Part shown: piece by piece, positions 29,192-61,541 of the stretch
How positions within the stretch are numbered: the first letter of the stretch is position 1
Layout of the letters: each line of letters starts with the position of its first letter
From: an uncultured Clostridia bacterium
GTDB taxonomy: Bacteria; Bacillota; Clostridia; Christensenellales; Borkfalkiaceae
DNA: 64,000 bases
Direction: 5' to 3'
Assembly: GCA_947625595.1 (NCBI GenBank)
Contig: CANQOX010000001.1
Location: 2,442 to 66,441, forward strand
Translations under genes and position numbers: made by a program
The notes under the pieces: model-generated
The model's input: only the letters and a program-made list of their open reading frames with translations
The model's database searches: none
What the model was told of the DNA's origin: nothing

Positions 29192-29223
29192 AAAAAAACA
29201 GACGCCGAAGCGTCTGTTTTTTT
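29192..29223 (-). terminator. Strong (bidirectional) intrinsic terminator closing the 32-kb surface locus
   Basis: A7-cagacgc-cgaa-gcgtctg-T7, lying 13 nt downstream of the 2146-aa gene stop on the minus strand. Confidence 0.8.
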
Positions 29224-29235
29224 GTGTTTCAGGAA

Positions 29236-32200
29236 TCAACCTGCGACAAAGTTGAAGTTGGAAACGGTTGCAAAGTCGTCTTTTGTAGCACTGGAATAAA
29301 TCATTGAAGCAATGTAAAGCGTATCTCCTGCTTGCACAGAAATTGCTTGCTCCGTTCCAGAGCCAGTTGAAGCAGAGAACTTCCTTTGATATGCATATGC
29401 AGAATTCGGATCCAGGTTAAGAGTAACGCACAAGCAATCATTTGTATCATACGAATTACTATATTGGCACGACCAATCAAAGGTGAATGTCCCTGACACT
29501 TTGAAAGTAATTTTAATATATGCTTTCGCAGTCTTGCTCGCATCAATGTGATAACTTCCGTCGTCCCGCAAAATCCACTTTTCACTCCCAGAGTTGTTTG
29601 TGATCTCTATCAAATAAGGCGTGGTAGACCAACCAGCGAAGATCTCCTTGTCGGCCTCAAGCGGAGCGGGAACATATGCCGTTTCGCAAGCCGCTTCCGT
29701 GAACCAACCTGTAAAGTATTGCTTCGGCTCGGAGGCAGTATCCTCGGGGGCTTCTTCGGTCAGGTCGGGAGTTGCGCCCTTCTTGTACCAAAGATCCTTA
29801 TTCTCTTCGGGGCCGTGGCCGTTGTAATTGAGGGTGAGTTTTGCCATGGTCTCGACCTTGCCATATACAGTGACCTCTGTGCCCTCGGGAATGAACAGGC
29901 CGTCCTCTCCGAGCGCGGAATCAGTGTATTCGGCCGAAGTGTACCAACCCTCGACATACTTGTGGGTGGCATCGTTCACGACGTCGGGAAGCGCTATGCC
30001 GATGTTCGTATTGACAGACATCTCCTCATGCGTGAGTTGTCCGTCCTCAATCACGAACTTCACGGTCGTCAAAGGCATGGTGGCGGTGTAGGTCTTGTCA
30101 TCGCCAGTCACAAGGGTGATCTCCCAGTACTCTGCGGGGTCATCACCGTCTTTCTCGAGGGTGACTGCAATGACATTGCCTTCCTTTGTCACATAGGTTC
30201 CCTGACGGCCTGCCCAAGAGACGCCGCCCTTGCCGTCGATGTCAAGATCTTCAGGCGTTTCGCCCTTGTTGCCCTTATAGAGCCCCTTGAAGTCATCGTA
30301 GACGGTCTTCCTCCAAACGATGTTAGAGATACGGGCAAGGTCATCACCGTTACCATTATCACCGCTATCCTTCGTATAGGTGAGAATAATGACATCTCCA
30401 GGCATAACTTCACAAGTAAGATTACCTTCTTTCCCAGGGTTATATCCACCCGTTGCCGCCAACAGTGTTGTTTCCGCCGAACCATCTGCGTGCTTCTGCA
30501 CAATCTTTAAGTAATCATAACGTTCACTTTCAGATTCAACGAACCAATGGAAAGAGTAAGTACCTTCAACAGCAAATAAGATTTCAAGTTTTGCCGTCGT
30601 GCTACCCTTATGATAATTGTTGGACTTCCAAACGCCTTCTTCCTGTACCCACTTGGTGTTCTCATTGGTCTCGTCAGGATAGTAGTTGACATCATCAAGC
30701 GTATCGCTCCACTTGGCATAGAGATCGGTCTCTTCGTTGATAACAAAATATGTATCAAACTTATCATCAGAACAATCTTCTGTCTTGTACCAACCAAGGA
30801 ACTGCTTCATTTCGACAATTGACGCAGGGTCACCTTTCCATGCAGAAGCACTCGTAACGGCTTCACCCTTGCCAACCACGAAATCGTAATCCTCCAGTGA
30901 GGGCACGTCCTCCCTGTTGTAATGAACATGCACAGTGACAGCTTCCTTAAAGTAGGCATAGAGCGTAACGCTCTCTGTCGTCGGCGTGAATATCCATTGC
31001 CTTTCATCATTCCTTTGGAGCATTTTGCTGAAATTTGATCCGCTCTTTTCCTCATACCACCCAATAAACGCATAACCATCCACGGTCGGCTCTTCGATCA
31101 CCGTCTCAATATTCAGGTTAGCTTGCATATCGGCGGGGAATTCGCCGCGGTCAATGTCACCGAAATCAAAGATGATCGTTGCCATGGGCTTGGTCGCGGT
31201 ATACGTCTTTTCGCCCTTATTGAGCGTGACATAATAGAACGCACCGTCGTAGGTCATTGTCGCCGTGTAGGCTTGATTAGAGACAAGAAGATACGTCCCC
31301 ATCTTGCCCTCCGAGCCCCTCACGATGCCCGCGCCGTTTAAGGTGAATGCGCCAAGATCGACTGTGGAGTCTGTAGCCTTTGTATATCCACCCTCATAGC
31401 CGTCAACCTCAACCATCTTCGTGCCGTTGAAGCCCCAACTTCCAAGAACTTTATCGTTCTGCTTCACGATCACGTTCTCTGAATGGTATGCTTCGTCTGC
31501 AGCAACGGCTTCGCCAGACATATCTTCGAATGTCACGCCAAAATACACTTTATCCTGGTAAACGAGAATATTGACCACTTCATCAGAGATAGTAAGTGTA
31601 ATGACACGGCCTTTTCCACCTTCCCAATACGAACCTTTTAGGCTGACTTGATCCATATCTGCTGGTACGAGTACTGCAAGCGTTCCAAATTTACCTGTCA
31701 AGCCCAAAACAATTATCTTTTTCGAAAGCATCATATATGCGTCATTCGAGCTGCTTGTACTATAGGCAAATTTTAGAGCACGTACATCATCGCCCGCATC
31801 GTCTTCGGAAGCAAACGTGACCTTCATTGCGAATGTATCAAGTGGCCAATCCAAGCCATTCACAATTGCCGCCTGTCCTTCTGAATCAATCTTATAGGAG
31901 CCGTTTTTTAATGTTCCGTTCATCTGCGCGCCATTTGAATTGCTACCATTGAAGTAGTACTCAACATATGTTCCGCTGTATGCGGGGGGATCGCCCCACT
32001 TCGGGTAGAGATCAATCGCCGTCGTGTCGGATCCAAGCGTGACGGTTGTGCTGCCATCTTCCAACTTCTCGCCCCAAAGATTTTCAAGTCCAGAATCAGT
32101 GTACCACCCCTCGAACTTCTTCCCTTCCTTGGAGGGACGGACGATCGTGACGTCTTCGCCTTGGCCAAAGGTATCGATCGTGCCGTTTGCGCCAAGTGAG

Positions 32201-60152: not shown

Positions 60153-61424
60153 TCAGGACCTGTTGTCTTGATATTCGATGTCAACGCTGCAATCCGCACC
60201 GACTGTGAAGCCTTCCTGCCAGACGAGCTTATTGTATTCGGCGATCAACTTGTCGCTTCCCGTGTCGACTTTCTTGATCGTGAAGCTGCCGTCGACGTGG
60301 ACTTTCTCCACCGTCGAGTCCTTTGCGAGGACGGCGAGCGGAGCTACAAAAACGTCGTTGATCTGATTGTAGCTGACGTCCACTTCGAGGGTGACGTCCG
60401 TAAACGTCACATCGGAGATGGTGGCTCCGTCGAGATTGCCGAAGAGGGAGACGCAGAGGGCCTTGTCACCGAGCAGGGCCTGCTCGGAGGAGATGACGGG
60501 GTAGTTCGGTTTCCCGTCCAACGTCAGTCCCGTCACGGTGTGGCCGTTGCCGAAGAAGACGCTCGTGAACTTGCCCGCATTGTCCCTGAAGCCGCGGATC
60601 GCTTTCTCCCCCGTGAGGTCGATGTCCTCGGTGAGGTAGACGCCGTTGCCCGACCGCGCAAAGCCCGAGACCGCACTCATGAACTCATCTGCCGTAGAGA
60701 CGTAGACGAAGTCGCCCTTTAAGTACTCGACATAGACTTTGACCGCCGTGCTCACTTCCCCACCGGGGTGGGTGAAGGTCTCGTCCCAAGGGATCCAGTT
60801 GCCGCCCTCCTTTCCTTTATAATAGACGATCTCGTACTTGCCCGTCTCCTCGTTCTTCTCCCGCTTGGCGGTGAAGCCTTTGCGGCCGTCGGCGAGGTTG
60901 GAAGTGTCGGTGAAGGGCATGCCCTCCTTCGTCTCGATGCTCGTGTAGACCTGCTCGGTCCCGCTCTCATCGAAGTAACAGATCTCGTAGGTGTAGACGA
61001 CGTTGGGCGCCCAGCCGCAGTAAAGGGTCAGGGACTCGTCGCCGCTCTTGATCCTGTCCTTCGTGAAGTCCCACGCATCGGAGTAAGTGACCGTCCCGTC
61101 GGCGCTCTCATTTCTCGTCTTGTACCAGCCCGTGATGTGATAGTTCTGACGAATGATGTCGCGCCCCGAATATTCCCCGGGGGGAGCGATGAGCGTCTCG
61201 CCGTCCTCGGGAATGTAGTAGTACATTCTGACGTGGCGGTCGGTGTTCTGATAGACGCCGCCCTCGAGCTCAAAGACGACCTCGACGCCCGTATGCCCAT
61301 TCGCATAGGGAGCGCTGCCAGAGGTGTAATCGGTCTCGCCCCCGCCGCATGCGGTCAAAAGACCTGCAAATATACAGGCGATGCACATGCATACGAGTAT
61401 AATGATTGTTCTCTTTCTTTTCAT
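60153..61424 (-). CDS. Lipoprotein with Listeria-Bacteroides repeats and a beta-helix-like C-terminal domain; first gene of the locus
   Basis: ORF 60153..61541, trimmed to the ATG at 61424 (MKRKRTIIILVCMCIACIFAGLLTAC). Also ITGWYKTR...LTLYCGW and FFGNGHTVTGLTL...ATISDVTFTDVTLEV. Confidence 0.8.
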   Translation of the reverse strand: MKRKRTIIILVCMCIACIFAGLLTACGGGETDYTSGSAPYANGHTGVEVVFELEGGVYQNTDRHVRMYYYIPEDGETLIAPPGEYSGRDIIRQNYHITGWYKTRNESADGTVTYSDAWDFTKDRIKSGDESLTLYCGWAPNVVYTYEICYFDESGTEQVYTSIETKEGMPFTDTSNLADGRKGFTAKREKNEETGKYEIVYYKGKEGGNWIPWDETFTHPGGEVSTAVKVYVEYLKGDFVYVSTADEFMSAVSGFARSGNGVYLTEDIDLTGEKAIRGFRDNAGKFTSVFFGNGHTVTGLTLDGKPNYPVISSEQALLGDKALCVSLFGNLDGATISDVTFTDVTLEVDVSYNQINDVFVAPLAVLAKDSTVEKVHVDGSFTIKKVDTGSDKLIAEYNKLVWQEGFTVGADCSVDIEYQDNRS

Positions 61425-61512
61425 TGATCCCTCGCTTTGCCGCCAACCGACAGAGAATTTTCGCCTGCGGTTATGGTGGAAAGTCCAAAATGACATAATA
61501 ATACAATATATA

Positions 61513-61541
61513 ATTATAGCCAAGCGAAGCCCTCTTGTCAA
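61513..61541 (-). promoter_or_regulatory. Consensus sigma-A promoter heading the 32-kb locus
   Basis: Minus strand reads TTGACA-agagggcttcgcttggc(17)-TATAAT. It is about 85 nt upstream of the ATG at 61424. Confidence 0.65.

Follow-up and report, generated by a model that had tools for sequence, protein, structure and literature searches.

A giant LRR-carrying subtilase linked to an Opp-type importer in uncultured gut bacteria: a probable locus for extracellular proteolysis and peptide uptake

The window analyzed here, a stretch of 64,000 nucleotides (nt) from an uncultured Clostridia bacterium, harbors a 32-kb array in which a giant subtilase with leucine-rich repeats (LRR) is encoded beside a substrate-binding protein (SBP) and a complete Opp-type ATP-binding cassette (ABC) importer. 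The array consists of 12 consecutive minus-strand genes, from 61424 to 29236, named g01 to g12 in the direction of transcription (Table 1). It is probably a dedicated system of extracellular proteolysis and peptide uptake, the parts of which appear to work together. A full-text search of a collection of open-access papers found no description of this cluster there.

The linkage of protease and importer recurs far beyond the window. A scan of one genome per species with the family of g02, the 891-amino-acid (aa) SBP, yielded no fewer than 559 relatives; the top 80 of these loci were taken with 10-kb flanks and compared by tblastn and phmmer with all twelve proteins of the window. As the titles of such database records proved unreliable, with some bins labeled Acidiphilium or Bacteroides, the spread of the loci was gauged by guanine-plus-cytosine (GC) content. 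The block g01-SBP-OppBCDF-g07 was found wherever the contig permits. In 45 of the 80 loci, the gene of the S8-family protease with LRR (S8-LRR) comes right after g07; in another 17 it directly precedes g01 and has the same orientation. The homologues are not scattered, and the protease gene adjoins the Opp module in 62 of about 67 informative species-level loci. Among the 18 loci without an S8-LRR gene, 13 are cut by contig ends, two of them with the first residues of a protease at the edge. A non-catalytic giant protein with Flg_new repeats takes the place of the protease in L021 (17027-21556), L062 (906-7349), and L078 (16-5904); the protease is also missing from L068, and for L054 the downstream side alone was examined.

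The GC content of the loci varies between 28 and 60%. Since the linkage is kept in two gene orders over this range, it is old and has been maintained through rearrangement, and genome comparison provides strong evidence that protease and importer are coupled in function. All carriers seen are gut-associated metagenome-assembled genomes (MAGs), many with a Mollicutes-like or Bacilli annotation. For the 17 genomes that have the protease upstream, a hidden Markov model search detected no homologues of g09 to g12 beside the module, apart from one weak g09/g10 match in L083. The locus is therefore divided into a universal core of eight genes (g01-g08) and a clade-specific extension of four genes.

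The protease g08 is built, from the N- to the C-terminus, of a lipobox signal, a pre-catalytic region, the S8 domain with a PA insert, putative Fn/Ig domains, ~800 aa of LRR_5, a helical region, and a C-terminal transmembrane (TM) anchor. It had been described from the DNA alone as a PA-domain subtilase carrying BspA-type LRR, which is borne out by Pfam (Peptidase_S8, 1e-37; PA, 5.8e-18; LRR_5, 2.5e-117 in 8 stretches), with the ~800 aa of LRR lying beyond residue 1450. The PA domain occupies residues 519-594, i.e. it sits inside the catalytic domain, between His311 and Ser655. The nearest solved structures of residues 177-926 are C5a peptidase (1.4e-58), SpyCEP, and cell-envelope proteinases (E-values from 1e-58 to 1e-54), and the proteinase chains of lactic acid bacteria score almost as high as C5a peptidase. 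D230, H311, N424 (the oxyanion Asn), and S655 align with the active sites of C5a peptidase and cell-envelope proteinase, and none of the four residues varies among the 70 sequences compared (69 homologues plus g08 itself). The alignment with C5a peptidase reaches residue 926; PF06280 (fn3_5) is recorded for orthologues, and none was found in g08 of the window at E ≤ 0.01. The model of the HupY/LrrG adhesin matches g08 as well.

At its C-terminus, g08 shows a feature unmentioned in the preliminary description of this DNA: a linker is followed by a hydrophobic TM helix and the tail KKRETDK. Helix and KKR tail are retained by most homologues, and no LPXTG signal was found ahead of the helix. The mature protein is most likely held by this helix, and the lipidated region of ~200 aa in front of the catalytic domain may be a pre/pro segment. 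In the reading proposed here, g08 would act as an endoprotease on bulk extracellular protein. In L021, the N-terminal 200-aa region of g08 is fused to Flg_new repeats without a catalytic domain, an arrangement that resembles a domain replacement.

The importer shows the canonical Opp/Dpp architecture, comprising a family-5 SBP, two BPD_transp_1 permeases, and two ATPases with ABC_tran and oligo_HPY domains (Pfam), and g02 to g06 are predicted to take up peptides. SBP_bac_5 matches g02 in two stretches (6.6e-21, 75.3 bits versus a cut-off of 32.4). A single-sequence phmmer search with g02 found no relative in the PDB; when a profile of 16 family members was used instead, OppA-type peptide binders, Lactococcus OppA among them, came out on top in the PDB (E = 1.6e-9 to 7e-7), with heme and nickel binders ranking lower. 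The best, though weak, solved relatives of the SBP are thus of the OppA type and not nickel or sugar binders. Only profile positions ~100-170 and 484-623, which correspond approximately to residues of the window protein, are matched, and the ~300 aa between these stretches match no solved SBP. The family comprises more than 2,700 scored homologues, the best 120 of which are all ~860-906 aa long. One cluster representative agrees with g02 at 100% identity, but an exact-sequence look-up of g02 returned no entry.

Among the remaining importer components, OppB (g03) shares 65-97% identity with its counterparts in almost every related locus, and the best NCBIfam models of g06 are OppF and DppF (412 and 404 bits versus 234 for NikE). 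Behind OppF, g07 is kept in 74 loci. This small protein has a Lys-rich N-terminus, an invariant-looking motif, Y[VI]DDGHT[VI]Y.M, and a C-terminal TM helix; it matched no Pfam or NCBIfam family. OppF of the window carries a C-terminal extension of ~150 aa (residues ~350-503) rich in Ala, Leu, Asp, and Glu, which is probably helical; the orthologues, 353-437 aa in length, have a far shorter one or none.

Homologues of the lipoprotein g01 are located directly 5' of the SBP gene in nearly all loci that extend that far (84 matches by hmmsearch), and the family forms 379 clusters (50% identity, E ≤ 1e-30), nearly all of 370-450 aa. The beta-helix that had been proposed for g01 is not seen in its AlphaFold model (predicted local distance difference test score, pLDDT, 87), which consists of Flg_new-type beta-grasp repeats and, following them, a domain with 17-residue strands. 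The presence of PF09479 (Flg_new) in some g01 homologues agrees with the repeats of the model. Foldseek returned no match to the model at E ≤ 1e-3; the weak matches (beta-grasp, YwfG, and IgA1-protease, E 0.26-0.41) give no support for a function and were set aside. The similarity of g01 to the N-terminal region of the M26 IgA1 protease is likewise sub-threshold.

The clade-specific extension keeps a fixed order of its own. Fifty-four homologues of g09 were detectable, and in all five contexts inspected (33-53% identity) the genes follow the order OppD-OppF-small-S8-g09-g10-g11(Big_3)-g12(Flg_new). A metagenome scan with the g09 family added 80 further loci, many of the contigs probably representing one species sampled repeatedly. 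Of the 58 metagenome contigs informative on this point, 57 have the S8 gene directly upstream of g09; among the loci with over 9 kb of downstream flank, g11 is found in 49 of 49 and g12 in 47 of 49. In three of the five inspected contexts, a gene for an extra 185-aa lipoprotein is inserted between S8 and g09. Such genes, for products of 185-189 aa, are located at 9418-9987 in L085, 9440-9997 in L089, and 9430-9987 in L090; the window does not have this gene, and a strong double hairpin fills the 107-nt gap between g08 and g09 instead.

The preliminary description had named g09 and g10 as paralogs. This relationship is supported by hhalign (probability 99.95%, E = 6.6e-38, 629 columns, 19% identity), whereas BLASTP connects the two by a single Ig-like stretch (E = 3e-4); the absence of paralogy read from an all-against-all BLASTP of the 12 products is thus overturned for this pair by the profile-profile comparison. 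In the AlphaFold2 model of g09 (pLDDT 86), beta domains follow one another in a chain, and no enzyme fold is seen. Foldseek matched it at the level of domains only (Big_2-CBM56, cadherin, and the lipid-binding LprG; target-normalized template modeling score, TM-score, 0.44-0.45) and gave no global match (query-normalized TM-score ≤ 0.15); its weak fold matches include the S-layer (surface-layer) protein SbsB. No sequence relative of g11 or g12 was found in the PDB by phmmer. Nothing found suggests catalysis outside the protease, and substrate-binding or scaffold components are the best guess for g09 to g12.

Two local peculiarities of g12 were recorded. Its N-terminal part contains a tandem repeat (34846-35565, minus strand; period 246 nt, 2.9 copies, 93% matches) that encodes near-identical units of 82 aa (HxWGxW...C...) and suggests a recent expansion. 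Between 30 and 34 kb, within g12, the GC content falls to 0.475-0.495 compared with ~0.58 around it.

As to the layout of the locus, thirteen genes had been announced in the preliminary description; the listing of open reading frames (ORFs) and their translation give 12, which is also the number of items in its own gene list. Its range of intergenic distances, -17 to 108 nt, is correct (33, 108, 17, 3, 3, -17, 18, 107, 34, 26, and 105 nt), all seven lipoboxes are found in the translations, and Pfam confirms the domains it had named (SBP_bac_5, the OppB/C/D/F set, the combination of Peptidase_S8, PA, Big_2, and LRR_5, and further Big_3 and Flg_new). The seven lipoproteins add up to ~8,900 aa.

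Table 1. Genes and expression signals of the locus, with positions in the window.
Feature	Position	Strand	Description
g01	60153-61424	-	lipoprotein, 423 aa, lipobox LTAC; Flg_new-like beta-grasp repeats and C-terminal beta domain
g02	57444-60119	-	SBP, family-5 lipoprotein, 891 aa, lipobox VAGC; ~300-aa insertion
g03	56331-57335	-	OppB-type permease; BPD_transp_1 6.2e-33 and BPD_transp_1_N (Pfam)
g04	55168-56313	-	OppC-type permease; BPD_transp_1 8e-34 and OppC_N 6.8e-9 (Pfam)
g05	54007-55164	-	OppD-type ATPase; ABC_tran 3.3e-24 and oligo_HPY 3.3e-16 (Pfam)
g06	52492-54003	-	OppF-type ATPase; ABC_tran 3.8e-30 and oligo_HPY 2.5e-20 (Pfam)
g07	52266-52508	-	tail-anchored membrane protein, 80 aa; 17-nt overlap with OppF
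g08	44595-52247	-	cell-envelope-type subtilase, 2550 aa, lipobox LCAC
g09	42082-44487	-	lipoprotein, 801 aa, lipobox LAAC; multidomain all-beta (Fn3/Big_2-like and LprG/LolA-like)
g10	39588-42047	-	lipoprotein, 819 aa, lipobox FAAC; distant paralog of g09
g11	35782-39561	-	lipoprotein, 1259 aa, lipobox LSAC; Big_3 9.7e-12 (Pfam)
g12	29236-35676	-	lipoprotein, 2146 aa, lipobox AVAC; Flg_new 2.4e-18 (Pfam)
Promoter	61513-61541	-	sigma-70-type, TTGACA-N17-TATAAT; heads the locus
Leader	61425-61512	-	~80 nt, conserved block TGTAnTATTATGTCATTTTGGACTTTCC right after the -10 element; candidate operator
SBP-OppB hairpin	57352-57376	-	GC-rich stem-loop, no U-tail; -21.5 kcal/mol, z = -2.1
g08-g09 double hairpin	44527-44576	-	two stem-loops, no U-tail on the mRNA strand; -27.6 kcal/mol, z = -7.05
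Closing terminator	29192-29223	-	intrinsic, A7-CAGACGC-TTCG-GCGTCTG-T7, 7-bp stem

The perfect promoter that had been noticed in front of g01 is the sole 12/12 consensus match in the region and lies at -116/-117 relative to the g01 ATG. It is kept in the related genomes L001, L002/L003, and L074, where the leader regions were compared (window 61425-61560, minus strand; L001 8560-8697; L002 8230-8365; L074 8500-8650). The conservation covers the promoter and the first ~40 nt of the leader: in the alignment of three genomes the block TGTAnTATTATGTCATTTTGGACTTTCC is nearly identical base for base, and the fourth genome (L074) retains most of it. The g01 products of the promoter-sharing genomes are just 31-59% identical, so the preservation of promoter and leader supports a genuine promoter and suggests an operator. 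The block may serve as operator for a regulator. No CodY box was found within 3 mismatches near the promoter, the window matched no Rfam family, and no conserved RNA structure was predicted in the leader.

Strong terminators occur at the two ends of the locus only. The gene 5' of the locus, coding for a P-type cation ATPase, has its own terminator (61691-61670, -17.3 kcal/mol, z = -4.4), as had been stated before, and the closing terminator behind g12 is confirmed by its folding energy (-22.9 kcal/mol, z = -7.2), which none of 200 shuffles equaled. With this arrangement, the locus may be a single transcription unit of 32 kb. Hairpins 3' of the SBP gene are a common arrangement that boosts the output of the binding protein over that of the permease; the stem-loop between g02 and g03, for which L001 has a counterpart at the equivalent position, may be such a stoichiometry element or an attenuation element. 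The double hairpin between g08 and g09 marks the border between the g01-g08 core and the clade-specific lipoprotein genes.

The proposed course of events is as follows. The giant subtilase, which belongs to the cell-envelope-proteinase/C5a-peptidase class, would sit on the cell surface with its lipidated N-terminal pre-catalytic region removed, and the ~800 aa of BspA-type LRR would hold substrate proteins or partner proteins. Extracellular proteins would be cleaved by g08 to oligopeptides, which would be captured by the large lipid-anchored g02 and imported by the adjacent OppBCDF. As constant companions of the transporter, g01 and g07 probably belong to it, and in the clade of the window four giant non-enzymatic lipoproteins would have been added to the core. 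The synteny, the catalytic triad, and the relatives of the SBP all fit the suggestion of the preliminary description that the locus captures, degrades, and takes up protein, a function that we infer; of the refuting conditions set there, none that can be checked computationally was borne out.

Several observations weigh against this proposal. C5a peptidase and SpyCEP, the closest solved relatives of g08, are virulence enzymes specific for host factors and not nutritional proteases, and g02 resembles solved peptide binders weakly (best E = 1e-9, partial coverage, ~300 aa unmatched). The transporter can exist without the protease, as 3-5 genomes keep the Opp module with the protease absent or replaced. 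Neither a rotamase nor a PrsA domain, indicative of a PrtM/PrsA-like maturase, is found among the 12 products, and there is no gene for an intracellular peptidase in the locus. The two strong internal hairpins leave room for sub-operonic expression, and the roles assigned to g01, g07, and g09 to g12 are guesses.

The virulence-type relatives of g08 lead to another explanation, namely that the locus serves interaction with the host or with neighboring cells. The targets of the protease would then be particular host factors (chemokines, complement, immunoglobulin, mucin), adhesion would be the task of the LRR region and the giant lipoproteins, and Opp would be linked as a fellow surface function or as a scavenger of the products. 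We consider this unlikely, although several features speak for it: C5a peptidase and chemokine protease C rank first among the solved relatives of g08, which moreover carries BspA-type LRR_5 and matches the HupY/LrrG adhesin model, the carriers seen are without exception gut-associated, the domains recognized in g09 are all of the Ig, cadherin, or Big_2 type, and g01 has its sub-threshold similarity to M26 IgA1 protease and its non-significant Foldseek matches (E 0.26-0.41). Pure adhesion or immune evasion, however, leaves unexplained why a full importer is constantly linked to the protease, in two gene orders and over 28-60% GC. The IgA1-protease similarities stay below significance, and the structural class of g08 also includes nutritional cell-envelope proteinases, which reach nearly equal scores.

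The mass of lipoprotein encoded in one array (seven proteins, ~8,900 aa) might also be taken for a surface coat, whose main outer layer would be made up of the giant lipoproteins together with the LRR protease; the protease would process or shed it, and Opp would recycle the peptides. Mollicutes-like or Bacilli annotations are frequent among the carriers, and in such lineages lipoproteins would be expected to dominate the surface; moreover, the non-catalytic Flg_new giant replaces the protease in a few genomes, and SbsB appears among the fold matches of g09. These fold matches are weak and confined to domains, however, no SLH or S-layer self-assembly domain was detected by Pfam in the products of the locus, and the 17 genomes with the upstream arrangement retain the protease-Opp core with the giant lipoproteins missing, which makes a coat quite improbable. 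A peptide-signal system, in which a secreted pheromone or bacteriocin-like peptide is brought to its mature form by the protease and re-imported by Opp, as in the RRNPP quorum sensing of Bacilli, would account for the tight linkage of protease and importer. The import of signaling peptides by Opp is established for Bacillus, Enterococcus, and Streptococcus, as is the processing of some such peptides by extracellular subtilases. Yet in or beside the locus there is no gene for a short precursor peptide, an RRNPP or Rgg protein, or another regulator; g07 is no secreted precursor but a membrane protein whose N-terminus looks cytoplasmic; and a 2550-aa enzyme with an 800-aa LRR region and four giant lipoproteins would be disproportionate to the task, so that the probability of this reading is very small. 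A chance neighborhood of unrelated surface genes has next to none. Same-strand runs are common in Firmicutes, which is a general fact only, and the idea is refuted by the same adjacency being found in dozens of metagenome contigs and, with one or the other gene order, in 62 of about 67 genomes that are informative at the species level.

A protease-importer partnership in protein utilization has a precedent in lactic acid bacteria, where proteinases of the PrtP class supply Opp with casein-derived oligopeptides and the protease and opp genes are separate. The logic is the same: a surface S8 subtilase with the PA domain inside its catalytic domain is combined with an Opp-type ABC importer. In contrast to PrtP/lactocepin and Opp, the genes are physically linked here across many lineages, and ~800 aa of LRR_5 are fused to the enzyme. 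The predicted anchor consists of a lipobox and a C-terminal TM helix instead of the LPXTG or S-layer-type anchor of the PrtP class, PrtM is absent from the locus, and the SBP is ~300 aa longer than usual. Additional parts are the conserved g01 and g07 and, in one clade, a set of four giant lipoproteins. The locus therefore works like a PrtP-Opp system, yet it is not a plain member of it. ScpA/ScpB and SpyCEP are the best solved matches to g08 (catalytic domain, PA insert, and putative Fn-type domains) and share its D-H-N-S arrangement. They are LPXTG-anchored virulence factors with narrow host targets, whereas g08 exceeds them in length by ~1,000-1,500 aa, includes LRR_5 repeats, and differs in its anchor; to our knowledge, genes of C5a peptidase or SpyCEP have not been reported beside an Opp importer.

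With the Sus-like polysaccharide utilization loci of Bacteroidota, the array shares the concept of non-catalytic surface lipoproteins, a depolymerizing enzyme, and a dedicated importer. It differs in that the importer is of the ABC type and not TonB-dependent, the phylum is another one, and the presumed substrate is protein. Pfam found neither a SusC nor a SusD domain in any product of the locus, and the comparison drawn in the preliminary description holds as a concept and not as homology, i.e. it is an analogy only. The proteins g01 and g12 and the C-terminal half of g08 are built from the BspA-type LRR_5 and Flg_new (Listeria-Bacteroides repeat) families. Known members of these families have been described mainly as adhesins or are of unknown role; by comparison, the LRR is fused to a protease here, and the Flg_new lipoprotein g01 is an obligate neighbor of a transporter SBP.

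A further-reaching idea, which we hold with considerable doubt, is that the module is a physically integrated and hitherto unrecognized protein-utilization machine of Gram-positive gut bacteria. The LRR arm, g01, and, in one clade, g09 to g12 would capture certain host or dietary proteins for the protease, g02 would dock via its 300-aa insertion and receive the peptides directly, and g07 would couple the ATPase of the transporter to the assembly. Hundreds of uncultured species (Christensenellales-like Clostridia and RF39/Acholeplasmatales-like Bacilli) have the module conserved, and it would then represent their main amino-acid route and a determinant of both their niche and their resistance to cultivation.

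Nearly all carriers belong to gut lineages that are uncultured and known from MAGs only, with at least 559 species-level genomes encoding a g02-type SBP. If the proposed proteolysis and peptide uptake is true, it makes the testable prediction that these bacteria feed on extracellular protein in the form of peptides, which could guide attempts at cultivation. The partnership of a cell-envelope protease with Opp would then exist as a fixed genetic unit outside dairy lactic acid bacteria, and g01, g07, the g09/g10 family, and the 300-aa insertion of the SBP would become approachable through their fixed partners.

The genes flanking the locus are ordinary chromosomal ones (NadE, RecA, CinA, PgsA, MiaB, FtsK, YunB, and Fe-ADH). 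YunB and the other housekeeping genes point to a spore-forming Firmicute, with ~58% GC, as host. Elsewhere in the window, an ORF of 885 aa (13593-16250, minus strand) combines a weak TIR_2 match (7e-6, under the Pfam cut-off) with C-terminal LRR_5 (8.5e-33), an unusual combination in a bacterial protein. A 511-aa ORF (24724-26259, plus strand) contains Flg_new, LRR_5, and a C-terminal Flavodoxin_4 domain (1.6e-50) and has the appearance of a surface-repeat protein joined to a flavodoxin-like domain. ARAGORN called a tRNA-Gly(CCC) at 3348-3432 (plus strand), which overlaps the 5' end of the NAD synthetase ORF (1249-3417, minus strand) by ~70 nt; either the true start of the ORF is located farther downstream or the tRNA call is spurious.

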